Shown here: piece after piece, positions 8,038-64,000 of the stretch
Position numbering within the stretch: position 1 is the first letter of the stretch
How the letters are laid out: every line of letters begins with the position of its first letter
Assembly (NCBI GenBank): GCA_002633005.1
Contig: NMRA01000073.1
Location: 124,001 to 188,000 of the forward strand
Source: Phoronis australis
Taxonomy: Eukaryota > Animalia > Phoronida
Reading direction: 5' to 3'
Length of the DNA: 64,000 bases
Notes under the pieces: model-generated
Seen by the model: the letters and a program-made list of their open reading frames with translations, nothing else
Databases searched by the model: none
Told to the model about the DNA's origin: nothing
Position numbers and translations under genes: made by a program

Positions 8038-8226
8038 ATGGGCATAGATTCACGGAAGGAGTACATTTTGACCACTGTGGGCAACTACTTCAATGTGCCA
8101 TCTACAGACCCGGCACTGGCGCAGTTAGTGGAAGGTCAAGCACTTAACTCATTTCTGGACGATGGCAACGTTTCCGTTCTAGCAGCCAAGAGAGATGAAA
8201 AAGAAGGAATTGCACTTCACAATTCG
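8038..8226 (+). CDS. DYNC2H1: DYNC2H1 coding exon 1
   Basis: Acceptor tttgcag at 8027; [18 protein letters not shown]...LHNS|gtatgt. Confidence 0.9.
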
Positions 8227-38200: not shown

Positions 38201-41200
38201 CGGTTTATTATGTGGTTTTGAAGCAGTGGACATTGTACTCTCACTGGTAATAAAGACATTGTGTGCCCCCCTACAAACTGCCATCAAACAGCTCACAAGA
38301 GAAACGGAGTTTCCAGTTCTTCGATTGTTTTTTTTAGGGTTAACACCAGTTGGTAGACTACAGTTTATGATATATAGTACAAGTGGCTTCATCTATTACA
38401 GCTTGCTGCTGAAGCACTGCTTCGAGCAATTACGGTCAACCCAAGTGGCCACAGTCCACTGCAGTGCTCAGACCAACCCCATCCACATCCTACAGAAGCT
38501 GACTCAGACCTGTATGGTGATCAGTACCAACACAGGCAGGGTCTACCGACCCAAGGACTGTGAGAGGCTAGTCTTATACCTGAAGGATCTTAACTTGCCC
38601 AAACCAGACAAATGGGGTACAAGCATGCTCATAGCTTTTCTGCAACAGGTACCAAGAATATGCAGTTAATATCATCTTTTTTAAACCATTATTTATCAGT
38701 GTGCTCCATTTGCTTTGAACACAGACATCTTGAGAAATGCAGTACCTTCTGTATGTTTAAATTCTTTTGATTTTCAGAAGACAGTTGTAGAGTTTTTTTT
38801 CTTGATAAAATCTTTATATCATGGCTTACAGTTAGTTTGTTTTCAAAACGTATTATCGGTACTGTTGTTTCGTAAAAATGAGGTACAAAATATCAACTTG
38901 GTCAGATTGAGGTATTTTAAATGTGTCTCCATTAGGTTCTGACCTACAATGGTTTCTATGACTCCAACTTGGAATGGGTTGGTCTGGAGGGGGTCCAAAT
39001 TGTGGCTAGCATGAACGGAGGAAGTACTCTTGGCCGACACAAACTGACCACACGATTCACCTCTGTTGTACGCATATGTAGCATTGGGTAAGTGCACAGT
39101 AACATCTAATGTAGTTCAAGCAATGCAATGAGAAAGTATGACTATCAACTTCATGAGTGTTAACTTAATAAATTGTAATTGGTAAATAGTTTCTTGCTAT
39201 TGCGATTGTTAGGTTTGATATCGTGAAGCAGAACACTTTCAAGAAAACCACATTGCAAATTCAGTGAGCCTACTACAATGTACACTGACTGTCATTTAGA
39301 GTTTTCCATAATATTACTGTGGATAACAAAAATTCAGTGAACCTTTGTGTCTGTTAATAATTACTCACTGACAGAAAACCTCCAACCTTATCGAGTCCAA
39401 CAACGACAAAATTGGATTGAGCCTTTCTCTAGGGAAAAGTGGGGACTACTTTATGAAAGCTCCTTTGCAAAGGTCAAAGAATCTTCATGACATTTACAGC
39501 AAGTTTTCAAAAATGCATGGGAAGTGAAACTGAAGTTAGCTGGTCATAATAACACATTTGGGCACTACATCACTTGTGTTGCACTATTAATTATATATTC
39601 ATGTTTAGCTCTATTTATTCCCCAGCTACCCTGACCATGAGCAGCTGCAAGCCATCTATGGAGCATATCTGAAGCCTGTACTGCACAAACAGTTGTCTAG
39701 ACACCCTATATGGGGTAACCCTGGCAAGGTGCACGGATTGGCAGGGTCTATGGTCTCTATCTATGAACAGGTTTGTTGTAGTGTTGAAGGGATTTAATAT
39801 GTAGGTTAGTAACAGTTACATTTAGTCCTCTGTTTGCTGTGTAAAGATGACATAAATGCATTTTATGCCGCATTTGTTATGAGATTTTTTATCTTTAAAA
39901 TTTCTTGTTTATGTTATTTTTTAATTCATAAAAGTCTTCACATTCCAGTTAAACAAATTTAACTTTGTGTTCTTAAAACATGTTTTCTTTTATATGACGT
40001 GAAATGTCTTTTTACAAGTTTTCCTAATAAGATTTTATATTACTATACATACTGGTTTGTTTCACTGATTTCAAGTTGGAAAGAGACACTGCTCTTAGAA
40101 GCAATGTCCATGGATTTTAAGGTGACCAGGCTATCTTTGTCATTTCTAACTTTTCATTAATTTTCTGTTATTTCACAGTAATTGGTGTTATTTTACAGCT
40201 GCGCAAAAGTTTCACAGTTGATGACTACAGTCATTACCTATTCACACCACGTGACCTCACTAAATGGGTACTAAGTCTGCTGCGTTATGACCTCAATGCC
40301 TCGGCCAGTGAGAACAAGAGTGACTACGTTTTGGAGGTGTTTGCCTATGAGGCATGTCGCCTGTTCCGAGACCGCATTGTTGGACAAGATAGCCTGAGCA
40401 GATTTGATAACATCCTCATATCTGTCATTCAATCAGACTGGAATGTGAATGTTGGTGATTGTTTACAGAGTGAGTGGAATTTTTTGCTACTCAATGTAAT
40501 ACAGATCATTGACTTTCTTTAATATTTGCAGTTAAAGCAGCTTAGAATCAGGAAATGACTTATTGCCTGTGTTTAGTTGGTCAATGGTTGTCAGATAGAG
40601 ATATCTGGTCATCTTATGACAAAAATGGCTTCAAGCCCTGCTGTAGTACTTAAGAGTGTTGGATACTTAGCTTTGATGATCGTTAACCAATAAGTAAGGT
40701 TGTTTATGAGATCGTTTTTGTCGTCTAGTTGGTCTACGCCAATAACTGCAGATGCTAATCCTTCTGTGATGTACAATGTACGAGACAGTGTGCTGTGATA
40801 TTACATGTGCCAGATTATCAAAAAGACTCAACAAAGTTTATGTTGATTAATGTCAATATTAAGGCTGATGCTCTAGCACATGCCTGTCACCTTCAGTTTA
40901 GGTTTCAGCTAACTGTGCAGGGAAGAGAAATTAGGCCTTTTAAGTTTATTCTTGTCATTTGAATGCGTGCTACGTTTAGTGGTGATTTATTTGGCACTAT
41001 TTTGATGTAATTTGGACCTGCAAATGCACAGTCACATCCTATTGTCAAAAATTTCACAGGTCTTGGATATTTTTCCATTCTGGTAATCAGGGGGGGCATT
41101 TTAGTACTTGAAACTTTTACAAAAACATTTGTGATTAATTGGTACACGCTGACAACAGTTGCACCCATTGTATGCTCCTTGAGATTTGAAAAGGATTAAG

Positions 41201-44200
41201 ATTATCAGATTTGTAGGTTGGTAATAACTGTCAAAATGTTTAGTAATTTAAAACACTACGAACGATTTGGCTTAATTGTTTAGGTTGCTTTGAATAGCCA
41301 TTTTAGTTTTATTTGACCGAGTCCAAAAGGTCAAAATGACACACTACTAAACAATTGGTCAAATTAGAGTAGTCTTGAATGAGACTATTTTACATGTATT
41401 AGGCCTACCAAAGGTCATTTTATTGATTGATATTGACCATCACACTCTAAGATTATCCCATAGTTTAAAGGCACTTTTGTTTTCTCTTCAGCGTCCTACT
41501 TCGTGACATGGGGAGCTCGGGGTGACTCTGTCCCCGCCCCTGGTGCCCCTCTACCACCAAATGGAAAACCATTGGGCAAGCTGACTGCTGGTGACTTCAA
41601 GAGTGTGATTGAGAAAGGATTGACCATGTATAGTAAGTTCTAAGGGTCGACTTTTCTATCTTTTGTTCCATACATTAAACAAATAGATGGTTCAGTTAAC
41701 AGGATTTTGATAAGGATTCGTCTTGAATGTAATTGATGATGGTGATACTAAGTTCTGCAAATTATAGTAAATGGTGCTTTGAATTAATTTTTTTTCTGAT
41801 TTCACATTTCTGACTTCGCTTGAATACTGTTTCCATGCTGCCATTCACATTTCAATTTTCTTCATTTTTTCAGGTCGAGAGAACCGTGATCTTGACTTAC
41901 TTATCTTTCACGAGGTGCTTGACAACATGGCTCACGTAGACAGAGTGCTTACCATGCCTGGGGGGTCACTCCTGATGGCTGGTCGGTGTGGTGTTGGACG
42001 ACGCACTGCTGTAACACTGGTCTCTTTCCTGCACCAGATGACCTTGATCTCACCAAAGGTCGCGCGTGGTTACGGACTGAAAAACTTCAAGAATGACTTG
42101 AAGACTGTAAGTCAGACCTGGGAAGTTTTGATATTGATGGGGAAATTTTACTGGCAGCCATCTGTTAGAACTCTTAAGTCTGTTATTAGAAATAGTGCAG
42201 GTGTTCTGATACGTGTTGCATTAGACGTCATGTATGGAGGTCACGTAGCTGTGCCTATTGTACCAAACACCTCAAGCCACTCTTTCTTTTATATTAACAG
42301 TAACACAATAATACATAAATTAAAACGAAGCTGAGGAGCTAGATACCTGACTCAAGGGTCCAGCAGTGGGGTCCAGTAGGATTCGAACCTACGACCTTGT
42401 GAACATGAGGCAGACACTCAACCCATTGAGCCGCATTGCCTCCCCAAGTCTCTTATTAATATTTGCTTTCATTGTACACGACGTCATCTACTCCTTGTCC
42501 AGTTAAATTGAGCTGAGGTGAAAAAATTGATTAGCAATTCAGGTAAAGTGAATTGTGTTACCTCTGAGCTTTCCACATCCCGAAATTTTTTTGACATTTT
42601 GTTACATTTTTACTAACATTTGTCAGTTTTTTATACCTTCAAATATTACTTGGCTCTGTAGGCCAAACCACCCATGTCTGTTTGGCTGCTCTTTTTCAGG
42701 TGATGCAGGTGACAGGTATTGAGGGGGAACAGGCGGTCCTGATGCTGGAGGACCATCAGGTCACTGACCCCACCTTCCTTGAGCTAATCAACAGTCTGTT
42801 GTCTGCTGGTGAGGTGCCGGGGCTTTACACCCCTGAGGAGCTAGAGCCCTTACTGGCCCCTCTCCGGGACCAGGCGTCCGAAGCTGGATTTAGGGGACCG
42901 CTATTCAGCTACTTTGCATCACGTATGTTGTTATACTGTTTAGTCATCCCTGACTTGGTGTTTTATTTAGAATAAGTTTTTGAAGGTGTCTTTCCAACAG
43001 CTTCCCATGGTAGAATGGAAAACTTAATTCGTGGGTTTTCATCCATGTTGTGGTGATTGTGGGGTGTTGTGAACTTTGTTGGATGTTAGTAAGGTGTTGT
43101 GGCACCTATACACTTCCATAAAGTGCCACCTGATCACGCTGAAGTTAAATCTCACCTCCTAAAACTCCAACCTGTGGAACGTAGACCCAAGAACCTTGCT
43201 AAAAGCAAGATTATACAGGACTTTGATAGTCAAGCATTACAAGCGAAGTACGTGATCATAGCATTACTCAATAAATTCTTGTATTTAATGAACGCAACCC
43301 AGGTTTTCAGACATCTCCAAGTTATCATTGATCTCAAGAGATGTTTACTAGCTGACAACCATCCAACAATGTATTTCCTTGTGAGTAGGTTTTGCCTTAT
43401 ATAATGTACAGAATTGACAAATGAATTTTGGTGATGTTAACAGTCAGACTGATGCACTCTATTTCTCACCGTTTCCCAGCTCACCTTATGTTGAAACTTC
43501 ACAGGCTCATTTAGGATAAAATGATTGTGGAAAGTATAGAGTGATCTCACATGTAACATACACAGTCACAAACATTTTCCAGGTATTCAAACAAACCTGC
43601 ATGTCGTGTTGATCATGGACTCCACCAACTCTAGCTTCACTTTAAATTGTGAGAGTAACCCTGCTTTCTACAAACAGTGTGTTGTTCAGTGGATGGCTGG
43701 ATGGAGTAGAGAAAGCATGGTCAGGGTAAGTTAGCACAAACTAACACATTGCATGGTGAACAGATTTTTTGTGTAATGTTTTGGGGGACAGAGATTGTTG
43801 TTAAGATAAAACCTGGAATAATATCAGTCACATAGTGATTAGACTTGGCTTGTATACACAATGGTCTTCTTAGAATTTCTGTCATTTGTGCTTAAGTATG
43901 TAGTGCTTTGCCAATAAGAGAGTAGGATATCTTGTATTTTGTATACACACAGGTCCCTAAACTTCTGCTCACCAAACCACCCAAAGAAGATGGCGCCTCC
44001 CTGACTGAGCGTACGCACAAGAAGAAGATATCTGGAGGGGACGAGTTACTCAAAGGGTTCTTACACATTCATGAGTCATGTAGTCCGGCCAGTGCCACAC
44101 CGCGGCGCTACATGTCCTTCTTACACACGTACATGCATGTGTACAACAATAAGAAGGGTGGCATTGAACAGAGGCAGCACCATCTTCAGGTCTGTGCAAG

Positions 44201-47200
44201 AATTATCATTGATTTTGTTTCATTTCACGTTGAGGCTGTCTAATTGGATTATTGTGTTGAAACTTTTTCTTAGTTTCTTCTTCAGCCAATATTTTCGTAA
44301 TTATGGAAACGTCTTCTTTATTGGGTAATTTGAGGTGCACCTAAGTATAAATTTCTAAGTCACAATTTTACTCTGGTAATTTATGTATTCTGAGGCCTAC
44401 CAGTTTCAATGTACCTGACTTTTGACCTATATGGTCATCATAATGGGATTTAAGTTTCCCAATGTGTCATGGTCTGCAGCGTGTACTCTAACTGATTGAC
44501 ATGTCATAAGTGTCAGTATTCAATTTTATCATAGTTGTGAAATACTTGTTACCTTCAGGCTGGTGTGTCTAAGTTGAACGAGGCCAAACAGTTGGTTGAT
44601 GAACTGAAGCTGAAGGCTAATGAACAGAGCTTGCTGCTGAGTGAGAAACAGGCAGAGGCTGACCAGGCCTTGAAGCAGATCACGACTAGCATGCAGGTGC
44701 TGTGTCATGCCTTATCCTAAACGTCATTATATTTGAGATATCAGCATGTTATTGAATCATATGGTGCATTATTTGTGCTGAGTGTGGGTTGAAAATAGAC
44801 ATGGTGTGGTAAGGTCACCTATATACTGAAGGAATATACAGAGGATGGTGAATGTTATTGGAAAGCAGTAATTTTATCTATTTATTTTGTAAAATTCTTA
44901 ATTTAAATTGTTTTGGGAACCAATATCATGGTTATGCAAATTCGACAATTTGGAAGTCCTCTGAGGATTCTGTTTCCAAAACGTAGACTCAGAAGAGTTC
45001 AATTCTCACTCTTTTTTGTTGTTATTGTATTTTAGATTGCCCTTTATGTTGTGAACATGGTTTGAATTTTCCTTTTCAGGAAATCAATTTTAATGTAATT
45101 TAGACATTGGGAAGCCTAGTCTTCAATCTCTAAAACACTTGTTTCATTCAAAGTATTTGAGTTCAGAATTCTTCTCCTATTTGTGTTAGTCTTGTGTAAC
45201 CTTGATGCTTTATTGACCATGCTCATGAAGGGTGTATGCACCCACACATAAACACAATTAATTTGACTGCATGTTGTCATCATGCTGTCTGAGTGTCTGC
45301 TTGTCCGGGTGTCCGCTTGATATTTCAAAAACCCCTGGTTCAATCTTGATGAAATTTGGCACAAATGGGACTCTTTTCAATCTGACCCCTCCTTCCCCTC
45401 TGCAGGGGGATAGGGCCTTTCAATGTTTTTTGGGAAGAGTGTTTCTGGATGAAATCACTGCAGTGCCCTCCAGTGGTAATTTAGGTCTCAACATGGAGCT
45501 TTTTAGTGCTTTTGTGAGTAAGGGTATTTCTCGATGATATTTAGAAAACTAATGGACAGATTTCAAGAAAACTTGAAACAGAGATGTGTGACAGCAGTGC
45601 GCCGCCACCAGTTGATTTTCAGATGCATTGAACCTGTGCAGCCATTGTGGTCTTGAGGGTGTTTTCACTATTTTTGAAGAATGAGTGTTTCCCGATTTCT
45701 AGAGAACAGAATGTCTGACAGATTTCAATGAAACTTGATGTTGGGGTATGTGATGGCAATGTGGTGGGACAAGTAATTGTTTGGCGGATTCATCCACTGT
45801 AGTACCCCCTTGGTGGCCATCTGTCTGGTTGTCCTGTTGCCCAGTTGACTGTTTGGTATCTCATAATCCCTTTGTCATACATTGTATTTTGATGAAATTT
45901 GGCACGTGACGGTGTTGGGCATCACTATGGTGGTGCATGCCTCTTTTCAATCTGTCTCTGCCTCGGAGCCGTAGGGAGACTTTTTCAGCATTTAGGTAGT
46001 ATTTTATGGGCAAGAGTGTTTCCTGATGATATGCAGAGAACTGACTGACAGATTTCAATGAAACATAACACCAGGATTTGTGATGTCAGTGGTCCATCAA
46101 AAGTCAATTTTTGGGCAAATTTGTCCTCAACAGCACCCTTTAATGGTCATTTTGATCTTGGCAAGGGGCTGTTTTAGTGTTTTGGGAAGAAGAGCGCATC
46201 CAGATGACTGTTGCTGGTACCAGTTGCTTTTTGGGAAGTTTTTACTACTACAGCACCCCCTAGTGGCCTTTCCATTTTGAAGATGATGGCAACTACCAGG
46301 TTTGAGCAGATTCCAACAAGTGTTGTGCCCGATGTGATTTTGTGTTTAGCTTTGTATTAATTCGCAAACCACATGATTGTTCTTTATGATAAGAAATAGA
46401 CTAAACCTGCACATTTGTGGATGCCAAGCGCTGTTTCTCTGTGTGGTGTGTTTTATTTTGTTGTTGTAAGTATTGAAAACTATTTTTTTGATATGATGTT
46501 AGTTTTAAAACTGGAAGTACCAACAACCTTTTGTCAATTCTGACTGATGTGGTCAAATTGTTGTCTCCTTGTACCTTACATGAAACTGATACAATTGTCC
46601 CCAGAAACTTTACCATTCCTAGTGCATTGTAGGCTAGTATCAACACTTTGTATTGCTCTTGTTTCTACAGGATGCCAGCGAGCAGAAGAGTGAGATGGAG
46701 GTTCTAAAGGGGAAGGCAGCAGAAGAGAACGTCAAGCTAGAAAAGCGCAAGAAGGCCATTGACATCGAGCTGTCAGAGATCGCTCCGCTCGTCGAGGAGG
46801 CCAAATCCGCCGTGGGTAACATCAAACCAGAGTCGCTATCAGAAATCAGAGCTCTGCGTGCTCCACCTGACGTCATCCGTGACATTTTGGAGGGTGTNAT
46901 ATAATGCTTCGCGGTTTCTGGGTTTGTTGTTATTTCTTTGTATGTTCTGTGTATCCTTCAATGAATATATATCACAGTGAAAAAACTACCAGGTTTGAGC
47001 AGATTCCAACAAGTGTTGTGTGTGATGTCATTTTGTGTTTAGTTTTGTATTATTTGTCAAACCACATGATTGTTCTTTATGATAAGAAATAGCTAAACCT
47101 GCACATTTGTGGATGCCAAGTGCTGTTTCTCTTTGTGGTATGTTTTATTTCATTGTTGTAAGTATTGAAAACTATTTTTTTTGATATGATGTTAGTTTTA

Positions 47201-50200
47201 AAACTGGAAGTACCAACAACCTTTTGTCAATTCTGACTGTTGTTGTCAAATAGTTGTCTCCGTGTACCTTACATGAAACTGATACAATTTCTAGTACATT
47301 GTAGGCTAGTATCAACACTTTGTATTGCTCTTGTTTCTACAGGATGCCAGCGAGCAGAAGAGTGAGATGGAGGTTCTAAAGGGGAAGGCAGCAGAAGAGA
47401 ACGTCAAGCTAGAAAAGCGCAAGAAGGCCATTGACATCGAGCTGTCAGAGATCGCTCCGCTCGTCGAGGAGGCCAAATCCGCTGTGGGTAACATCAAACC
47501 AGAGTCGCTATCAGAAATCAGAGCTCTGCGTGCTCCACCTGACGTCATCCGTGACATTTTGGAGGGTGTGCTAAGGCTGATGGGTATCTATGATACTTCT
47601 TGGGTCAGCATGAAAAGGTACAATATTAGGGTACTCAACTGAAGTGCACTGTGGGAAGTATAGCATTCAGTTATTTGAGTGTAATTTGTCTTTGTCTAAT
47701 GTGGACATTGAAATCTCTTCTTTAAGATATTACAATTAAGATGTGGCAGAGAATGTTGTTTATGATAAAATCTTAACAATTTAGGACCCACGATATGTTG
47801 GACATTTCAAGTGAATTTCTGTTTCATTTTTATGAAAGATGATTATCACCAGATGTATGCTGTTATCAGTTTTTAAGTTTTTATTATTTACCACCAGTGA
47901 TGGGTTTTAGAAATTATGGACATTTGCAACTTTTTGAATGATTAAAGAATTGATGTCAGCATTTCTTGTCACATGTTGATGAGACTTTTTGTTGGGAATT
48001 CATGAATCAGGCAACCAGTGAGTACATAATATCCTTATTGTGTTGTTTTTTGATAATGATGTCTTTCTGTTAAACCCATTTTTTGAGGAGAAAATATCAT
48101 ACGTGTATTTTCTGCATTTAATTGTTTGTCTCTTTTTTGCTTAATAGCTTTTTGGCCAAGAGAGGCGTTAAGGACGAGATCCAGTCATTTGATGCCAGGA
48201 AGATTTCTCCTGAAATTCGAAAAAATGTGGAAGATCTGTTGCAAAAACGTGGCGACTCCTTCACTCCAAAGGTATTGACTGTGCAATGAACTGAATGCAA
48301 TGTATCAAATGACCTTAAAAATGTGATAGTATGGTCATGTTGCATATTACTAAGACTTGAAATCACATCCCAGAAAAGGTAGTTTTCACTATCTTTTTGT
48401 ATTTTTCTCAGTAATTCAGATAAAAACATTCTCCATGAAAATGATATATAGTGGAAACATGGGCAAACACGTTTTGTCTGTATTTGGGTGAAAGAATTGT
48501 GTTTAAAACATTTAAATTGACAGAAGACAGGAGGCTGGGCTATAACACTTTGTCTGCTCATAAAATGAGAGGGTTTTGTGATTAGCAAACACTAACAAAA
48601 ATTAAAATGCTGATTTCAGATGGCCAAACGAGCGTCTGTAGCAGCTGCCCCACTGGCTGCGTGGGTGACTGCCAACGTCAAGTTCTCCTACGTTCTGGAA
48701 AAGATTGAACCCCTGGAGGAAGAACAGTCTCAACTTAAGAAGTGAGTACTCTTCACATTCAAGAATTGCTTTTGAATGTGCACAATGCACAATGGGTCCT
48801 AAAGATTGGAATTTCTAGGATTTCAAGGGATTGCCAGCCATCCACTTGCTACTAATAAAGCAGAACATACGGTGAATCTTCTGCATTTTGTCTAAATATT
48901 TGTGACTTGTGCTGCACATCTTGTTATAGCCATGGACAAATTTTTCTTAAATTCATTGTTCAGTCTCCATGGCACAATTGTCAAATTTTACCTCTCCATT
49001 TCTTAGGAATCTACAGAAGGCTGAAGCCAAGATGGAAAAACTTGGCAAAGCATTAGCGGAAGTCGATCAAAAGGTGGCAGCACTGAGGGACCGCTTTGAG
49101 AAGTTCACGGCAGAAGCAGCCAAGTTGAAAATAGAACTAGAAAAGGAGATGGAGATCATTAACTCAGCAGAGACCCTGGTGGGCAAACTGGAAGGTGAAT
49201 ACAAGCGCTGGAGTGACCAGGTAAGCAGGTTGTCTGGGCAGGAGTCATGTCATTCAACAATGCACTCTGCATATTATCATTCGTCCAGATGAATTACATG
49301 AAGATGTGAATCATGACTTCTGGTACTTACTGAAAAATAGTTTTCCTGACATTGCCGAGCTGCCTGGCTCCTTCTACTTGGGATTGATGACTGACTGGTT
49401 GTTATGAAACTTCATCGCCCTCTGCCGAGGTTCATAGATAACTTCAAGGCCCTGGACCATGAGATGGACAAACCTAAATCTGACCCCTCCATCTCTATTC
49501 AAAGAGGGGAAACTATTTTACAGTAAGTTCCTGACATTAGCATCTTATAAAAGCTTTGTGTTTTTCAGGGTCCTTGATTTGAAATTAATGCTCACAGTTT
49601 GCCAAAAAACTTTGACTCTTTTGCCATTCTACATAGTAAAACAGTTGCTGTACTTTGAGTAGGCTTCAGTCATCTTGGCAAATAAATAGTATAAATGCAT
49701 TGTGTATGATACATGAAACAAGAACTAGCTTAGTTCCTGTTCCTTCTGTAGTTGCGCTCTTATATATTCTATTTTTGGTGTTTAATGTCATTGTTTTTGT
49801 TTCACGTATCATACAATCATAGCATTTGTAATTTTAAATTTATTTTCAAAAATTCCTGGATAACTGAAGTCTAGTTACAGCAACTGTTTTACTATAAAAT
49901 AATTTGTACTGTATTTTATTTTATAAGTACTCGTGCATTTGTGTTTGTGATCTACTATTTCAACTGCCATCTGATGACATTTAATGTAGACAATACGAAA
50001 GTTTGTTGAACAAACTATCTTCTAAGGCCAAGAACAGCTTACTTTTTAATGAAGGTCTGCTACCAAAATACAGATATTTGTATAATGTCTAATTTATGTA
50101 TATGTATATAATATAGAAGTGTCATCAGTATTAAGCATTACTATATGGTAGGAGAAGACCTAGAAAAACATCCCCAGCTGGTCACTTGATGCATGTCAAT

Positions 50201-53200
50201 CAACTGGTTGCAGGCGGAACATTGCATTTTTATGGCTGTATAATGCTTGAACTAGAAACTTTGTAAGTGCATTGGAGTGATTTAAAATAGACACAAAAAT
50301 CAAGGTATTTATTTGTAATTGTTACCCTAGGTTGGTGAGTTGGCTCAAGAACTGAGTGAATTACCAAAGAGGGCGCTGCTTGCTGCTGCCTTTCTGTCAT
50401 ACATGTCTACTGAACCTGAAGATGTTCGTAAAGCTAACCTTGAGAAATGGATGGAGATGTTGGGTATGTGATATATCCTCCGCATTTCATACACATGTAC
50501 AGGTTTGAACAGATCTGACTACCACTGTGCCACCTAGTGGCAGTTTTATTTTTTATGTTTTCATCTGTATCTTTAAAGTTTCTTGACTGATATTCATGAA
50601 ATTTGTCATTGATGTAGGTTTCTGTTAGAGAGACATTGGCACCTTCCCATTTTTCAGATAGATTCTAGATAATGTACACCACCTAGAAATCATATTTATT
50701 ATTTTCAATTTGGTTTTTGGTGTCCGCCTCTTTATTGGTCAAACCACTGTCATGTGTTCCTACTGGGAAGGCACAGCTGGTGGTGATTTTTGGATTGTTC
50801 GGACTACTGTGACATCCCCTAGTGGCAATTTCGTTTTTGCCTACCAAGTTCCTTAATGGATACCTTTTAATATCTCATTCTGCAATTTTTTAAACTGCAC
50901 GTCAATATGTAAAATGATATATAAAATTGTTTGCCAGAACAAAAATTTGCCTATTGCTCAAAAAAGATTTCAAGATGAAGGTTATAACTTTGGAAGTGAT
51001 GACTGGATAAATTTATATTCATTGAAAATAAAGTTTTAAATTGGATACTTTTGCTATCAAAATATCTTATTCACGTATCTAAGTGCAAAAAATAATCCCC
51101 AGTTTCTGTCATTTCCTTAAGATATTAGAAAGAGAATTTTATATTTAAGAGGAATTTTATTAAATAGTGGTAATTTAGAAGAATACCAGGCAACCTGGAG
51201 AAACTGGTGAACCATAACTTTTTCCCGACAACATCCTTGCTACAGTGGGTGGGTATGTTGAGGGGGGCAGGTGCATGTGTGCGTTCATGCGTGCGTGTGT
51301 TTTAGGAGTGAGAGCGGCTTGCATTTTTTGTCTTTCATGTCTTTATACCAGTAATAATAATAATAAAAATTTCCTTGAATGATCTTAATGACATTAATAG
51401 GTATTTGTCTCTATTGAGGAGAGTACAACTGACAATGGTTTTTGGATGAATCCGATTTCTGTCAAGTCCCCCTAATGTCAATTATGGTTTTCTTTACGTT
51501 TGCCTTGATATCTATCAAGTTCCTTGATGGATATTCATGACATTTTGAGAACAAGTTATAGTCTAGTAGACAACAGAACCTACTCCACTTCACACGGATT
51601 AGACCTACCCCTTGTGACCTTTTATTTTTTGTGCTTGTTTTTTTTGATGTCTGCCTCCCTGTTCTCCAAACTGCTTGAAGGATCATGATTGCAAGTGTTT
51701 TCTTACTGACTACAGCATTCTTTGTTGAATTGCTGTAGTCCCCCTAGAGGCTATTTTAAGTTCACTAGCATTGCTCCCTTTAATGGGAATGTTCGATCAT
51801 TCCTTGTATCGGTATGTGATGCACATGATGAGAGCTTATTAAGTGCTTTGTTGTTATAATCATCAAGAAGCTGCCAAACAAACACCCTACTCGCATGTAA
51901 TCCTTTCTTGTCTGACTTCTAGGTGTTGGTAACTTTGACCTTCGTCGTTTCTTGAGTACTGAGAGCGAACAATTGATATGGAAAAGTGAGGGTCTGCCCT
52001 CTGACACTCTGTCTGTGGAGAACGCTCTTGTAATCCTACAGGTACATAACAGATATATCATCAATTGGGGTATCATATTTGAATGATTGAAAAAGTGTCT
52101 CCTGTTATCAGTATAATTATTTTTGAGTTGTTCAATACACAAGCTCAAAAACTATAATGACTGTATGTTAAACATGTTTAGTCTGGAACAGTTTCTTTTA
52201 ATAATATGACTTAGTAGTAACAGTGCATTTTCCTGTTTCTAAAATTGTATTTTTTCTGAAAAGCTACGGACTATTATATATTTTTTCAATCCAAAAATTT
52301 TGACAGTTTTAGGTTTCAAAAAAGTGGTTGTAGTCTAAACAGTAATATTTAAAAAATAGATAGTTCCGTCCACAAAAATTAGACATTTTGTACTGACTTG
52401 TTTAAAATTATATTGTCTTTAAAAATTTGTTTTGAACTTTGTGAAGGTTATTTGAAGAGAACACTTAAGTATGGGCTTCAGATGATCAATAAGAGAGACA
52501 GTTATTTCATTTTTTTGTTGCTTATTAATAATTTCTTGCTTTTGACATTACTGAATTAGGTAAAAATTGATCCTCTTTTTTAAAAGCTCACGCCCTACAT
52601 TATTCTTAAGTTAACTAATCAGAGAAAGTAACATGATATGAACTTCTTCTTTATGGTTTAATATTTTACTGTTTTATCTGCGCACTGTAGACCAACGACA
52701 TGATTGCGGGGGTAGGTAGTAAGATGAGTTGTGTGCAGTACTCTATGTCTGTCTTCAACCCTTCCCTGTGTTATACCTATGGACACAATGATCATTGCTT
52801 TGCAATTTGCTTTTTTTGAAAGGATGTCATTTTTGCTTTGGGAAGCTCTCGTCATTTCGAAGAATTTTGTCTGAATATTGGAAAATGATGTGCGAAGGGC
52901 TAATTTTCAATAATTGATTTGTGTTTTATTGTTGGATGAATATGATGCGTTAACGAAATTTGTTAGTTATAGATGCTCGTGTTTGGACCTAACGATGGAC
53001 ATTTCATCAAATATTATGTCCCTATTTTGTCTGCGTCTCATCAAATATGAATTTGGCATTTGCTACCATGTTACACACCCACTATGTTTAATAAGAGACA
53101 TCCTCTTGGCCATGTTAAGTTCTCTCATTCTGCATCCATTTTAAATTAATTGTAAATTTTGATTTCCTCTGTGATATTTCTTACTGATGGTTTGACTAAC

Positions 53201-56200
53201 GGAAATGTTGACAATGTCAATGTGTTTTTCTTTAATTTGTGACTGTGTGTTTTGGGACAAGAAGGTTTCTATTTCAACTTTTACTAAGCCTGTGTGGCAT
53301 GACTGTCCTTTAATATTCCATACACTCATTCAATATTCTAACAGTTGGTTAAAGTTAATGTTTGCTCAATTGAGATAACATTTTTATCCAAGTCTATCAC
53401 ACTTGGAAACATTTTGAGAGTAAACATTTATGTGTTCAGTGAATTTGCTTTTTTGGTTGTTGTTGTGGCACAAGGTGTGTTTAGTTTTTGGTTTGGTTCA
53501 CAAATATCCACCCTCTATTACAAGAGTGTAATTATTTAATGTGTGAAACAGTGTATAGTGTTGAGACAGGGAGAGTAGTGCATTTTACATTATAATAGAC
53601 TTTCTAGACTACATCAGGGCACTGTAAAGCCTTTTATTTGCAAATAGATTTAGTAAAAAAATTAATAGTTAATCTAGATGAAAGCTGTGTCAATTCTGCT
53701 AACCAGTTCACACTACTCACCATGGCTGCACTTGTTGCTTGAGCTTACATTCCTTTCACACGATGTCACACTACTAACTCATGCTTTGCAATGAATACTG
53801 TGCACTTACTGCTATCTGGCTTGAACATTCTGTCATAAACGAACTTTAATTTGACTTAAGTGCCTAATGAGTAAGTCATTTCTTGTGCCTACAGAGTTCG
53901 CTCCGTCCATTTCTGGTAGATCCATCATCACGGGCAACTGAATGGCTTAAGACTCACCTGAAGGAAAGACGACTTGAAACTGTCAATCAACAGGTAAACA
54001 TTGGTACTGAGAACAGTATTAAATGACATTAACAATGTGCATGATAGCAGAGAGTACCACGAACAAAACGAGAGCGCTCAGAGGAGCGAAACTTGGCGGA
54101 ATTAATCGAAAACACGACGATGGGGAGGACGACGACAATCATGACGATCAAAGCGGCAATTATGAACAAGGCGGCAATTACGAATAACACAATAACATTC
54201 ATGTGACTGGCGAAGAAATCAAATAGAGACCATACAATCAACTACAATAAAGAACAATAGATGGCGCAACAGGACGGTCCAGTCTGCATTAGGACAGTGT
54301 TAGCTGGGTCAGTCTGGGTCAACTAGGCATAACCAAAACAAAGTGAACTGAAAGCCAGCCAGCTGCGTGCTTGTATAGGTGACCAAAGGAACAACGGTAT
54401 CCGAAAATCTCGAATAATTCAAAAAGTAGACGTTTTAGCGCAAAATGGAAAATATCTTCTGAAACCCCATTCCAAACTCTATCTAAAATGGTAGTTTGGC
54501 AAACACGATAACATTCATGTGACTAGCGAAGAAATCAAATAGAGAGCATACAATCAACTACAATAAAGAACAATAGATGGCGCAACATGACGGTCCAGTC
54601 TACAGTAGAACAGTGCTGGCTGGGTCAGTCTGGGTCAACTAGGCATAATCAAAACAAAGTGAACTGAAAGCCAGCCAGCTGCGTGCTTGCATAGGTGACC
54701 GAAGGAACAACGGTATCTGAAAATCTCGAATAATTCAAAAAGTAGACGTTGTAGCGCAAAATGGAAAATATCTTCTGAAAGCCCGTTCAAAATTCTATCT
54801 AAGGTGGTAGTTTGGCAAAAATCAAAAAAAATTTCGAGAAAATTGAAAATTTGCTGTTTTTTTTGAAATTCAAAGTCAAATAACTCGAAAACGGTAAGTC
54901 TGAGAAATACGCTCTCGCAGACTTTTTGAAAGGCCATACTTCAAGGAATCCACATGCAAAAATTCACGTCATTTGCTCTTCCCGTTAAAATGCGACACCA
55001 GAGCGATTGAAACCGTGTGAACATGCGCCACAGCCGCCATCTTGAAAGTGACTTCCGATTCAATATTTTTATATAAAAGCGTACTATGAAACTCAACAAA
55101 CACTTGACCAGCTTGAAAGTGATTGGTTTGCAAATGCGCCCTCTACAGGAGACAACGTTTTTGGCCATATTTCGGGGTGCGCATGTGCCACTTGCAATAT
55201 TTCCGCCATCTTTGACCGGAAGTCAACGATTTTTTGCACACTTGTAGCACATGCGTTCTAGTATAATCGTACCGATTTTCAGTCATGTACGTTGAAAAAT
55301 GCGGCCTCTACGAGCATTTGACTGTGAAATCGGATACAAAATGGCTGCCACGTCCGCCATTTTGTATCCGATCATGACCAAAAACAATAGGCTTTCAGGA
55401 CTTTCCGATCTACACGTCGTGTGCAACTTTCGTGAAAATCAGACGAAAATTGCGACCAGTAGAGTGCGAACAAACAAAAAAAAAACTTGCTGTCAGACCA
55501 ACATAATTCTTCGAATTCCGCCAAGTAACCAGGGGTAAGAGTTATGAACTAGATCACAGAAAGTTGTTCCAAGCTCTGGTGTACGCTTTTTGCAAGAGTG
55601 TCAAGAATTAATTTCCTGAATAGATTGTCTATAGAATAGATTACATAATTTTTTGTTTTCTTTAGAACTGATGTTTTTCCACATCCATGAGGATGCATAA
55701 CATCACGCTTCTTCATATTTGTGCCTTTTTAACTTCGTATACGGTCTGATTGTTGGCGTGTGCCGGAGTTCTATTCATGAAGTTTACATTGTGCGTAGGA
55801 CTCCAACTTTAACACAGCCCTTGAGCTGGCTGTCAGATTTGGCAAGACATTGATCATCCAAGAGATGGATGGAATAGAGCCCGTCCTCTACCCCCTACTG
55901 AGAGGTGACCTCGTATCACAAGGTATGTAATAAATTAGTCAATAGTAAGTAACAATAGTTTTTGTTGGTAGACTTAATTATGCCCATTAAGCTTAATTAT
56001 GCCCATTAAGCTTAATTATGCCCTGTTTATCATTTCCGTGGACTTGGTAGTTCACTGCAGAGTTAAAAAAAATATGAATTTAGCTATTTGTGCAACCAGA
56101 GACTGTCAAAAATCAGTAATGTGACATGTCTTTAGTAGTTCTCTTAACGTTACCTCTTATCATCACTAGTAGTCCTATTGTTACTGCAACTGTCTACTTA

Positions 56201-59200
56201 CTGCTACTAATGATAACCCATCTATAAAAATATGTAGCAGATATTATTAAGAGTAAAGGGATATTGTGTGCTGTATCAGTTATATTGTTGAAAATATTGT
56301 TATTGGTGGTAATCTTTTATTTAAAAGGACCTCGATTTGTTGTGCAAATTGGTGAAAAAATGATAGACTACAATGAAGAGTTTCGCCTATTTATGGTAAC
56401 CCGGAATCCTGCTCCTGAGATTCCTCCAGATGCAGCCTCCATCATATCTGAAGTTAATTTCACCACCACTAGGGCAGGGTTGACTGGACAGGTAAGTTTG
56501 TTGTCAATACTTATGTCTGTCAATGAAATAATCTGCCTGGTATCCGTAAGTGTGACCCAAGATATTCTTTGTTACCTTTTTCATTATATCTGGCATTTAA
56601 TTCATATAGCTATAATAGGGTTGACTTGTCTCTTAAAACACCTACACTAGTCACAAAACTTAAGACATCTTGTAGTCATGTGTTACTCCAGCTATTGTCT
56701 CTTGAAACACCAACACTTAGCATACATATTCATACATATTCGTGCATATTCTTACATATTAATACATATTCATACATATTCATATGTATTCACATATTCA
56801 TACATATTCTTACAATATATACATATTCATACAATCATACATCTTATAATAATTGCTCCAGCTATTGTGTCTCTTGTAACACCAACACTTATCGTACATA
56901 TTCATACACATTCGTGCATATTCTTACATATTAATACATATTCATACATATTAACTTGTTACCTCAATGTGTTTCTAGAGCTTTTGTCTCTTGAAACACT
57001 GACACTTATCATCCATATTCATACATTTCATACGTATACATATTCATACATCTTATAATCTCAATGTGTTACTCCCGGCCAGCTATTGTCTCTTGAAACA
57101 CCAACACTGTCTTATACATATTCATTTTCATGCATCTTATAATCTCAATGTGTTTCTCCAGCTACTGTTTCTTGAAACACCAACACTTATCATACATATT
57201 CATACATATTCATGCATATTATAATCTCATTGTGTTACTCCAGCTATTCTCTCTTGAAACACCAACACTGTCTTATACATAATTCATTTTCATGCATCTT
57301 ATAATCTCAATGTGTTTCGCCAGCTACTGTCTCTTGTAACACCAACACTTATCGTACATATTCATACATATTCATGTATCTTATAACCTCAATGTGTTTC
57401 TGTAGCTATTGTCTCTTGAAACACCGACACTTATCATGCATATTCATACACATTCATACATATTCATACATCTTATAACCTCAATGTGTTTCTCCAGCTA
57501 TTGGCTCAGACCATCCAGCATGAGAAGCCAGAGCTAGAAGTGAGGAAGACTGAACTGCTGAAGCAAGAGGAAGACCTGAAGATACAGCTGGCCAAGCTGG
57601 AAGAGTCTTTACTGGAGGTAGGGCATGCGGTCATCTGGACCTGCTTAATCAGGAATTATGGCTTGGGGGCCATCGGTGTGGTCAGGAACTAAGGCTTGGG
57701 CCAGAGTGATAAGTTTCATCAGGAACCAGGGCTTGGGCCAGATGGGGGAGTTTTTCATTGTTGTAGAGCTTGGGTCCAGATAAAGGAGTCTCCCCTGTTC
57801 TGACAGAGAACCTACCTTGGAGGTAGGACATGTAGCTGGGTAGGGTTGTGTCTTTCCTGGTGGTAGGACATTGGATCAGAGAACAGGAGTTTCTCCTGGA
57901 GGTAAGACATAGGGTCAGACAAAGAAGTCTCTCTGGGAGATGGGGTTTCTGGTCAGACAGATGATCTGCCTTGTAAGGACGGCTCAAGTTAATATGAATT
58001 CAAACTGAAAGTATCCCACTGATTTCAGGAACTTGCCAATGCTAAAGGTAACATTCTAGAGAACAAAGAGCTGATTGCTTCACTGGAAAAAACCAAGGAT
58101 AGCTCACAGACTATACAGAACTCGCTGAGGGAGTCTTCAGTGCTGCAGAATGACTTGGACAAGGTGTGTGGAACTTATAGAAAGCCTTTCTGATGGAAGA
58201 CCCACTGACATAGTGTAATCCTCTAAACTGTTAAACTGCTTTTTGCTGACATTAATTAAATATTAATAAATATTCTTTTACTTCTTTTGGCAACGTCAAG
58301 ATTGGGTGGAACTTGTCTAATGATGTATGCATTAATTGGGGAACTGAAAATTCATTTCTAGAATTGCACTTGTGGGCAAATTAGTGTTAATGTAGGTCCT
58401 CTCATCTAACCTCTCAAGTCATGAACCATAGCTATTTACATTTTTTTAGTTTTTACAATTATTATTATTACATATGCATATCACCACAAGCTTTGTTAGT
58501 TTCCAAAAAGTTAATTATATTTCATTATGTTATTGGTGGCCACATATTTGTGTCCGAATGATCATTTCCTTGTTTTTTATCAGAAAAGGGCTGCTTTTTG
58601 TTGTTTCCTGTTATAATATTGATTTTATTTATTTATTTATACCATTTATTCATTCTGTACACATAGCTACGGGCCCAAAGTATAACATGACAAATTATCA
58701 AGCTTATGTCGTGTTACACAATGTCACTCCTCTCTTCAACACCAAATGTATAAACTTCATAGCAGATTCATGTGGATTGCTTCACAAGTTTGAGACTTTG
58801 TGCCGAGTTGAGGATTACAAAATTATGGCTGACAAAACAAATGGACCTGAGATCTGAATAATGCTCACATTCTATTGAAAAGTGAATTTTGTACTGATTG
58901 TGACGTAACAAGCAATCTTTCATTGTGTGCTTTTTTTACAAATGGTGTCCATAATCTACAAAAAGATAATAATTTGCATGTGTTTTGTCTCACTCTGTAG
59001 GAGCGCAGTGCCTACTTGCCACTTGCTGAAAACGGTAGTCGTCTCTTCTTTGTGATTGGTGACTTGGCCAAGATCAACAACATGTATCGGTTCAGCCTGT
59101 CCTCATTTCTCCGACTATTCCAGCGTGCTCTTGATGGAAAAGCGGTAAGTCATCACCATACAATGCTGCCCTCTATATTGCTGTTGCATTCATCTGATTT

Positions 59201-62200
59201 GTGGCTCTAAAATAACATAAAACCAATATTTGGCACATCTCAGAATTTTTCCGTTCACAGAGTTTAAAACACTACGAAAAATTAGTTTCATGTTACACAA
59301 CTGTTAATGTCACAATAGTTTGTTAAATAGTAATTTCACACGTTTCAGTTAATATATTATTTGGTGAGTAAGGAGATTTATTGTTCTTTTAGTTTGTTAG
59401 TAAGGAATCTTTCCGTAAATTGTTTTATTTATTGAGTAAGGAATAGATGAATAATTCAGCATATTGAAAATCATATTAGATCAGTTTAACTTGAAGGTTT
59501 ATCGAGGGCTTTTTAGGTAATATGACTATTTCCTTGGGACATCCGCTTTCACACAATGGTGAATGTCGAATACTTATGACTTCCATAGCAGTGGTTAATG
59601 TAACTTTATGTTAACAGTCCTTCCATGAATTTATCACAATAAAATTACAAAATAACATTGTTATGGTAGTCCATTTAAATTTCAAAACACTCTATTTATT
59701 TCACTCCTTTGCTATACTGTTCATAACCATTACATACCATCTTTAGGATCATGGCAGTACAGACATGCGTATCAAGTCTCTCGTTAGCAGCCTTCAACAT
59801 CTGGTTTATGAATACGTCTGTCGCTCTCTGTTCAAAACCGACCGACTCATGTTTGCTCTACACATGGTCCATGGAATGAACCCTGACATGTTCCAAGAAA
59901 ATGTAAGTATGGCTTAACAAATGTGTACATTGTTCCTAATCATAGAATCTATGGCTTGAACTTTACTTTGTAAACAAAATGCAAAATTAATTAGTGTTTG
60001 TCATCATTCAGATAAGGGAAGAAGACAATAGAAATAGTGCATCATAAAATAGGATTTGCATAATGCTTTAGAAAAGTGGTGGGAATTGGAAAATTTTCAG
60101 AATCAATTAATTTAAAACCTGTCCGATTATGGGCTCGATTCTAAATCAGTTTTTAGTGACGTTATCAATGAGTTTTGGCAAGGCTGTTCACTAAAACAGG
60201 CAATGGTACAGGATCAAAACAGAGATTTTTTTTCTCCAGAGAACAGCAGATGACTTTGCACTATGGTACTAGACAATGATTTATGTGCGAACGAGGTGGC
60301 TTTGCCATGGGTGTATGATTAAAAAATTTGCTAATTATACCGAACAAACTTTTGTTTGCAATCGAGTAGACTTAATCGCATTTCATGAATTTTAAAATTG
60401 TTTAGCGAGATTGCAGCCACAATTTTACTGTCTTGGAATCGATTTCAATTTAATGTTTTCCTTTAGCACCAATGTCGGTGACAAGTTGTCTAATGGTTGC
60501 AACACTACTTTAGAGTGATGTTAATTAGGCATCTTAGTTTTGTAGTCTACCAAACAGTCCAGTCAGGCCTGGATTTCTTGTCCATTTCCACCTTTCCATG
60601 TGTCTAGATAGCAATATGCTCTTGATGACAACAGTATTGTCTCAAATCTTGTGTCACCATAAATACAACAGTCCATCTAATCTAGGACATGTAGTGTATG
60701 GCCTTCTCCAACAATTTGTGTATTGTTGCCAGGAATGGGAAGCTTTCTGTGGCCTTGTTGTTTCCGACGTCAAAGCAGATGGCAAGACACGTGAAATCCC
60801 TGATTGGATTGATCAGGAGCGGGTGTCCGCTGTGTCATTGCTGAAGGTAAGTTACCACCAGTATGTCAAGTGCAAATTGTTTAACAATTAATTAGTTGTA
60901 AAACCTAAATTTGATTTGATCGGTTGCATGTGTGACCAATGTGTTGCCTCTGTTATTGAAAAATTTCATTTTTCTTGTTATTGACAATAACTGTGGATTC
61001 TGGTTTATTAATGACAAAAACATATTAAGCTTGGCCATTCACACACATACAAGTAATTCTCATTTTGAAAATATTTTCCTGTTTTTAATTATTGTTCGTA
61101 TGAGAAGAAATTTGGTAACTTTGTTGTCTCTGGCTTTACAAAATTATGTTTCCTATGTGTTTTTGAGTCGTTGTGATTGCAATGTTGGTTACTATATTCC
61201 AGTCGACCTTCTCCAAGTTGTACAATGAACTGAACCTGAAGGACACAAGCCTGTGGTCGTCATACAGTCGTAGTAACTTGTGTGAGGATGAGATACCTCG
61301 TGACATCAAGAAGAGAATCACACCATTCCAGGAAGTCCTGGTTGTCCAGGCAACTAGACCAGATCGTCTGCAGAGTGCTATGACTAAGTTTGCCTGCAGC
61401 TCTTTAAGTAAGCTGTAGATGTCGCTAGTGTGTCCATTAGCTATTCAAGAAGCAGTTGGGATCAATGTCAGATGATTTATGGTTTTCAGCATTTCACAGA
61501 CATTTTAAGTCTGGTCTGCATGCCACCTGGTAGCCATATCAGTAGTGTAGAATTTAAATGCGACACAATTTGTTAATGAAAAAAAAACTTGAAATTTTAT
61601 TTCATTGAAATGTTTATTTCACAGTTCTCACAGGTTTTTGAGTCAAAAATCTCACAAACGTGATTAGAACGATTACTGTGTGAAGCAGCAGTTAGAGTAT
61701 TCCTGATTCATAAACAATTGAAACAATCACCATGTTGCCAGTGCATATCTCTTAGTTGCCAGTGCATATCTCTTAGTAGCCAGATGCTTAGGACATTTTA
61801 CTGGTATGTAAAATTTTACATTTTGGTCATCTGATCAAGAGAGGCGGAACCAAAAATAGATTTTTAGGTCATACTTCACTAAACAACTTTCATTTCAGGC
61901 ATGAAGGAGTTGTCTCCCCCTACAGTCAATCTCAAGCGCCTGTTTGAGAACGAGACTCTCCCCACAGAACCAGTGTTGATCATCATCTCCGCTGGTGCCG
62001 ATCCCTCTCAGGAACTTCAGGACTTAGCTAAGGAATCAATTGGCGCTGACAAGTATCATCAGGTATGTTGGTCAGTTAGATGTCTTTTATGAACAGCATT
62101 TCCATGTTGTGACATTGTGTTTTAAGACATCATGCTTTCATCTGAAAAAATGTCAAAATTTGGCTTACTTCAGAACATGGTATCTCAAGTGGCTCGTCAG

Positions 62201-63768: not shown

Positions 63769-64000
63769 GTAATCAGCTAACTTGACTGTGTTTATAGATG
63801 TAGTGTTCCTGGCATGAACGCATGTTCACACAACCACTACCATTGTAACTTGAAACCGTTCTCAGCTTATCGCAAACATTCTTGTTAACACGCTTCCTGG
63901 GGCCACATCTCTGCACTAAATTTGAATCTGAAACCTTCTGCTGTCCGTGCAGTTACACTCATTAGGTCATGTGATTTGGCCACAGGTGGTGTGCTGAGCA

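Follow-up and report, generated by a model that had tools for sequence, protein, structure and literature searches.

A 21-nt alternative microexon of DYNC2H1 in the phoronid Phoronis australis and its likely bilaterian ancestry

The human dynein-2 heavy chain gene, DYNC2H1, contains a 21-nt microexon which, according to Ciampi et al. (2022, PMC9303857), has a PSI of 83 in retina, 24 in neural tissues and 1.6 in other tissues (HsaEX0021304), and which was already known in vertebrates (see also PMC7917623). A unit of the same length is present at the equivalent junction in the phoronid Phoronis australis, raising the question of whether this unit is a true exon, whether it shares its origin with the human one and whether it may be subject to the same neural control. 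A sequence-only reading of the locus had proposed a neural microexon of ancestral or convergent origin, and we have thus examined this proposal using RNA reads, orthologous proteins and orthologous introns.

The microexon and its splicing in Phoronis

The window (the whole stretch of 64,000 nucleotides analysed) holds the DYNC2H1 gene at 8038..63771 of the forward strand, modelled by tblastn and splice-site analysis as 67 exons plus the microexon. The 67 exons yield a 3,841-aa frame with 0 stops, and the gene continues beyond the window, which ends near residue 3840 of some 4300. Orthology to human DYNC2H1 is evidenced by a whole-gene match and by the insert junction, which agrees with that of named proteins, and 15 splice joints of the gene were detected in RNA within 32200-45200. 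In a motor-region tree of 27 rows from a quick search, annelid-free as Dimorphilus was left out, the Phoronis protein pairs with that of Lingula (SH-aLRT 99, 78% identity).

The cassette microexon (52691..52711, +), identified from RNA joints and homologous inserts, lies in the host intron 52042-53894, of which both flanking junctions are in phase 0. The upstream constitutive exon (51923..52041, +), supported by sequence, RNA and the splice model, ends in ENALVILQ, is alignable to human dynein-2 in 4RH7 and corresponds to the start of Pfam AAA_9, that is AAA5, with PF12781 beginning just upstream of it in orthologues. The downstream constitutive exon (53895..53993, +) begins with SSLRPF and has its own acceptor with a TGC at -9. 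The sequence-only reading had described a stop-free, phase 0-0 unit of 21 nt encoding TNDMIAG and followed by GTAGGT, and this is borne out by the sequence; the unit is within the 3-27 nt of microexons, has canonical AG/GT borders and keeps the frame. The insert had been placed after residue ~3263, which is corrected by our gene model to about 3,289 residues before the insert, the human site being after residue 3273.

The acceptor region (52629..52690, +) comprises a T-rich tract, an AG-free zone of 60 nt, a TGC at 52679-52681 (-12 to -10 relative to the microexon) and the AG at 52689-52690. This acceptor is weak, outscoring just 7 of the 66 acceptors of DYNC2H1, and its AG-free zone compares with a median of 27 nt and is equalled or exceeded at 5 of the 66. 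The donor GTAGGT (52712..52717, +) has median strength, outscoring 34 of 66 donors, and its joint 52711>53895 was found in 8 reads. The 66 modelled introns contain 533 frame-keeping, stop-free YAG..GT units of 3-30 nt (41 of them with 21 nt), and only seven, 52691-52711 included, clear the 10th percentile of both splice-site scores. A chance AG-21-GT unit is in any case ruled out by the RNA joints.

Four RNA runs (X1-X4) carrying the same species label and devoid of a tissue label were analysed, about 18-19% of X1-X3 being read. In X1 the joints 52041>52691 and 52711>53895 were observed in 9 and 8 reads, respectively, and the skipping joint 52041>53895 in 17; the corresponding numbers in X2 are 1, 0 and 20. 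Runs X3 (3 reads on the stretch) and X4 (0 reads) are not informative on inclusion. Both splice forms therefore exist for 52691-52711, and the mapping of the two inclusion junctions which the sequence-only reading had put forward has a positive outcome in these unlabelled runs. Inclusion amounts to about 35% in X1 (95% CI 17-56) versus 5% in X2 (0.1-24; Fisher p=0.015), and as the coverage of DYNC2H1 is alike in X1 and X2, this indicates that inclusion varies with tissue, stage or individual.

Homology and age of the insert

The unit agrees with the human exon (exon 64 of NM_001080463, HsaEX0021304; PMC7708302, PMC9303857) in gene, in junction (after ENALVILQ, human residue 3273), in phase, in its 21 nt, in adding seven residues at the start of AAA5 and in being alternatively spliced, as the sequence-only reading had it for junction and length. 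The mouse exon MmuEX0015987 (PMC8797185) likewise has 21 nt in the orthologous gene, and mouse isoform X1 carries a 7-aa insert at the junction. The peptides TNDMIAG and IIGLKSW are different, and the inserts of other animals were compared with them.

Of 258 proteins of at least 400 aa whose junction could be read, a 7-aa insert is present in 100, an insert of another length in 9 and none in 149, a count that is biased by one search having used an insert-bearing query. The inserts are INDLPVG in Haliotis and a chiton, INDFAAG in Mya and MNEIPAG in scallops, CDGIPPG in the nemertean Tubulanus and INPQKPG in the annelid Dimorphilus. Those of the echinoderms Asterias (INDLPVT) and Lytechinus (TNDMSIK), of the hemichordate Ptychodera (SNDLPVA) and of Branchiostoma (LNNMKAG) are similar in length, Ciona having five residues (LSEFK), and in vertebrates we found INKLKIR (shark), INALKPR (sturgeon), INDLKLR (Paramormyrops), ICSLKSS (frog) and IIGLKSW (mouse). 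Ten invertebrate species have annotated models both with and without the insert, which is present also in reference models lacking an isoform number from Pecten, Ylistrum, Mercenaria, Glandiceps, Lytechinus and Tubulanus. The 13 proteins examined from cnidarians or sponges all lack it, and so do the models that could be consulted for Lingula (1), Lamellibrachia (1), Macrostomum (1), Nymphon (6) and bdelloid rotifers (3), as well as models of several molluscs, echinoderms and tunicates; a skipping model in a species is not proof of loss. The Ciona savignyi peptide VIPPFFF was taken as read-through and excluded from the profiles. As a general source of inserts starting with V, donor read-through was ruled out, one metagenome locus (L003) having a true AG-flanked exon that encodes VNDFTAG.

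Under a profile of 18 named invertebrate inserts, TNDMIAG beats all 25,697 intron 7-mers and all 3,835 dynein 7-mers, in agreement with its fit to the common, INDLPVG-like invertebrate motif. Using a spiralian-only profile, five of six ambulacrarian inserts score above all 3,835, and amphioxus LNNMKAG is at 3 of 3,835. When scored with the invertebrate profile, the fish inserts come out at ranks 1-9 of 3,835 (INDLKLR 1, INKLKIR 4, INALKPR 5), the frog and mammal forms have drifted to 155-249 of 3,835, and mammalian IIGLKSW is weak against invertebrate profiles (249-316 of 3,835). A vertebrate-only profile fails to recognise TNDMIAG (814 of 3,835), so that the link to mammals runs via the fish forms. 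Near-identical peptides are found on both sides of the protostome-deuterostome split, such as chiton INDLPVG and sea star INDLPVT, or INDLKPG of annelid-like loci, teleost INDLKLR and sturgeon INALKPR. The description of the Phoronis peptide as simply different thus holds towards IIGLKSW but hides its match to the invertebrate motif, with fish forms bridging the two.

The orthologous intron was sought in 80 metagenome loci, of which 17 are distinct, bilaterian-like and have the complete intron. A homologous exon was observed in 15 of these 17 versus none of six coral-like loci, in which the intron is at the same place. In eight complete introns (L002, L003, L005, L009, L012, L013, L017 and L019) the exon has 21 nt, the same motif and a GTAAG donor, meaning that the AG-21nt-GT unit, whose search in other invertebrates had been suggested by the sequence-only reading, is kept. 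Seven others (L039, L044, L050, L054, L056, L059 and L068) contain a 15-nt form encoding NSDFV or NNDFV, and considering these as losses of the exon is wrong; in the remaining two (L008 and L047) no exon was found. Partial introns add L001 and L014 (21 nt), L004 and L007 (probably 18 nt) and eight further 15-nt cases. The rotifer-like loci L030, L034-L038, L041-L043, L046 and L060 have neither an intron nor an insert at the junction. The presence of the intron in coral-like loci, where the exon is absent, suggests that the exon probably arose on the bilaterian stem, within an intron that was already there. As a separate observation, there is next to no variation in the 15-nt exon among 15 loci with differing flanks (L027, L033, L039, L044, L050, L053-L056, L058, L059, L061, L066, L068 and L070), and its acceptor is TG-rich and mostly devoid of a UGC near the AG.

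The insert is present also in insects, with seven residues in Glossina (ILDLPYT), Drosophila (MLSLPFG) and Gryllus (ISCLEAG), which rank 3-5 of 3,835, and with six in Ostrinia, Pieris and Aricia. Each of the 16 named insect models that cross this position has an insert of 6-7 aa; six had been chosen for the insert, and the other ten, being cluster members, had not. This survey covers a search of 50%-identity representatives and ten proteins that were looked up, with no crustacean record among them. One insect-like open reading frame on a 10-kb contig crosses the site over 1,142 residues, which weakly hints that the insect insert may have been fused into a large exon. In Drosophila, IFT is reported to be active in sensory cilia only, and Dync2h1 to be dispensable in sperm (PMC10556659). 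A lineage using dynein-2 solely in sensory neurons appears to have fixed the inclusion form, and this is the best indirect sign that the inclusion form is the sensory one.

A single bilaterian origin of the microexon appears likely from these comparisons. Of the two origins that had been offered, the ancestral one is favoured over the convergent one because the peptide is homologous across protostomes and deuterostomes. Loop length at this site differs by 1-5 residues in other divergent dyneins, and such variability leaves a small chance of repeated gains.

Regulation and role of the insert

The human exon responds to SRRM4 with a dPSI of +11 to +81 and to MSI1 with a dPSI of 0 (PMC9303857), and the mouse Dync2h1 exon is listed as eMIC-dependent (Torres-Mendez et al. 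2022, PMC8797185, table S2). In the latter work, eMIC targets are described as combining a weak acceptor with an extended AG-free zone and with a UGC close to the AG, and eMIC-bearing Srrm234 is reported for non-vertebrate bilaterians generally. The Phoronis microexon has all three of these features. The UGC, which the sequence-only reading took for an SRRM3/4-type signature, is indeed present at -12, but as a sign it is weak: ordinary DYNC2H1 acceptors have a TGC at -14 to -8 in 5 of 66 cases and at -20 to -4 in 20 of 66, so that it discriminates weakly. Nor are the orthologous 18-21-nt exons enriched, a UGC at -30 to -4 being found in 7 of 12 of these (the other five having none) versus 27 of 66 ordinary acceptors (p=0.35). 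We have thus dropped the UGC as strong evidence; it is described for 74-79% of SRRM3/4 targets and as not strictly needed (10.1101/2024.09.17.613571). Musashi control was considered, as two UAG lie just behind the donor, and rejected, given that the orthologues have 0-3 in 100 nt and that the human exon is unresponsive to MSI1. Taken together, we consider that the odds of eMIC-driven neural inclusion in Phoronis are slightly better than even.

About 20 residues of Pfam AAA_9 precede the insert, which is placed in a surface coil after the first AAA5 helix and before the PFL-DP motif; the human residues 3270-3273 are coil with 32% accessibility in 4RH7. AAA5 is not known to bind nucleotide. In anterograde trains the AAA5/6 of one heavy chain is reported to bridge two IFT172 subunits (PMC10191852), and AAA5L to touch the linker and to be coupled to the stalk (PMC6600642). 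Modelling of the insert-bearing proteins P0023 (30 rows) and P0070 (46 rows) with AlphaFold2 resulted in a pLDDT under 50 across most of AAA5. In the review PMC10987577 the exon is said to weaken microtubule binding, citing Niekamp 2019, a work that tested yeast stalk mutants and in whose main text neither DYNC2H1 nor isoform occurs; this claim was set aside, as the cited main text does not bear it out. No biochemical test of the insert was found in the literature. In the human disease allele a premature stop lies within the exon (p.Ser3279*; Vig et al. 2020, PMC7708302), which indicates that the inclusion form dominates in the retina and not that the seven residues are needed; their function in retrograde IFT is left open in the accessible text of that work.

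Based on these data, the weak acceptor and the long AG-free zone would result in skipping by default, and in neurons, by analogy with the human and mouse orthologues, the eMIC would recruit U2AF/SF1, aided by the UGC at -12. The seven residues would then lengthen the surface coil at the start of AAA5, most likely altering a contact rather than catalysis, such as the docking of AAA5/6 on IFT172 or the coupling of AAA5L to linker and stalk, and the altered contact may change train loading or docking, release, or stepping and speed. The resulting proposal, to which we give somewhat better than an even chance, is that of a bilaterian-ancestral 21-nt microexon adding seven residues to AAA5, turned on in neurons via the Srrm234 eMIC and producing a form of the motor for sensory cilia.

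Other scenarios must be considered. The exon may be ancestral and regulated, with its inclusion in invertebrates depending on different splicing factors or marking a different stage or class of ciliated cells, such as gill or tentacle epithelium, larval bands or testis, in which case the neural eMIC control known from the retina would be a vertebrate refinement. An inclusion of 35% in a bulk sample goes along with this, as such a value is high if limited to sparse neurons and much ciliated epithelium is expected in the animal; the lack of UGC enrichment among orthologues, the TG-rich acceptor of the 15-nt clade and the insert-bearing reference models lacking an isoform number point the same way, and a 20-species study reports that the neural specificity of exons is rarely common across bilaterians (bioRxiv 10.64898/2026.09.05.749416). 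However, the Phoronis locus itself combines a weak acceptor, a 60-nt AG-free zone and a UGC at -12, inclusion drops to 5% in X2 at like gene coverage, and inclusion is seemingly fixed in insects, where IFT, as known from the fly, is sensory-only. We regard this scenario as unlikely, yet as one that deserves serious consideration. Rather improbable is, in turn, an old exon of nearly neutral effect, whose in-frame insert is tolerated by the loop, enters the transcript at a low level by leakage and has no part in tuning: no functional assay was found, Niekamp 2019 does not mention DYNC2H1 in its main text, and the exon is shortened to 15-18 nt in some lineages and absent in rotifers, but peptide and length are maintained across bilaterian phyla, the 15-nt exon hardly varies in 15 loci whose flanks differ, and inclusion in the retina is switch-like.

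An even slimmer chance is given to the view that vertebrates, insects and other bilaterians, for instance, each gained a microexon of their own in this intron, the loop being a permissive hotspot. Recurrent neural exons at equivalent positions are reported to be common (bioRxiv 10.64898/2026.09.05.749416), the loop varies in length in other dyneins and the direct similarity of the Phoronis peptide to that of mammals is not significant. Against this stand the identical phase and the length of mostly 21 nt, the near-identical peptides across the protostome-deuterostome split, the gradation that leads from shark and teleost forms through frog to mammal, and the high ranks of the Glossina, Drosophila and Gryllus inserts. 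Repeated gain is largely refuted for spiralians, ambulacrarians, amphioxus and fish.

Returning to the ancestral, eMIC-controlled exon, its closest known counterparts differ from it in what has been measured. The human exon is joined to that of Phoronis only through fish and invertebrate forms, and its tissue and regulator are known; eMIC dependence has been measured in mouse and is only deduced for Phoronis. The 6-nt exons of APBB1/2/3 and the 9-nt exon of MADD, the only ancestral neural exons named in the accessible text of the 20-bilaterian study (bioRxiv 10.64898/2026.09.05.749416), are likewise short, in-frame and bilaterian-old, with a neural specificity measured in vertebrates, insects and outgroups, whereas the DYNC2H1 exon is longer, is in a ciliary motor, is seemingly constitutive in insects and has its tissue measured in vertebrates alone. 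Being seemingly constitutive in insects, it would fail the criteria of that study. A broader proposal, which we advance tentatively and at less than an even chance, is that the human 'retina' exon is a pan-bilaterian switch of sensory cilia, gained on the bilaterian stem in an older intron, controlled by eMIC, alternative where non-neural cilia depend on dynein-2 as well, and constitutive in insects, whose IFT is confined to sensory neurons. Such an exon would join those of APBB and MADD as a third neural microexon of ancestral age, and would be the first of them to lie in a ciliary motor.

Our literature search found no paper on the exon outside vertebrates (PMC12626424 has 0 hits for dync2h1), and the 20-bilaterian study did not come up under DYNC2H1; orthologues from invertebrates may nevertheless be listed already in VastDB or in the 2019 eMIC paper. 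The depth of its conservation is apparently unreported, and is accompanied by RNA proof in Phoronis and by a testable insect fixation. The DYNC2H1 exon is thus a further candidate for a bilaterian-ancestral neural exon, in a gene of human retinal disease, and one that screens of the 20-species type would miss if insects fixed it. It implies that the tuning of the IFT motor to cell type by splicing would be older than vertebrate photoreceptors. In addition, the question of Vig et al. regarding the effect of the seven residues on retrograde IFT becomes cheaply testable, as chiton, sea star and hemichordate offer natural pairs of isoforms with the insert as their sole difference.

Other features of the Phoronis gene

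A second candidate microexon of 27 nt, encoding RVRILLGYQ, is located at 37345-37371 (+); it is the best-scoring short unit of DYNC2H1 and has a TGC upstream. Its junction is one at which models of a chiton, a scallop, Pomacea and Babylonia have another alternative segment of 7-9 aa. The reads evidence 18 and 9 skips, and no inclusion joint is found among the 15 of 18 joints displayed. The joint 34985>36060 has 10 reads in X1 and 1 in X2, the adjoining joints having 10-13 reads in X2, and this imbalance may be noise or a further alternative event. Intronic reads at 53552-53894, directly 5' of the downstream constitutive exon, are found with a depth of 1-3 in X2 only and may represent unspliced RNA or another acceptor.

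The segments 46291-46897 and 46984-47569 are near-identical copies (565 of 585 bases) that flank a single N at 46898 and repeat one exon, and they are likely to be an assembly overlap, not a real exon duplication. An intronic repeat at 42320-42368 attracts hundreds of partly matching reads in X1, X2 and X3, whose loose ends appear tRNA-like, and it is perhaps a SINE. Tandem-repeat-like intronic stretches, perceived as repeating peptides in the frame listing, occur at ~31020-31290 and 56530-57480.
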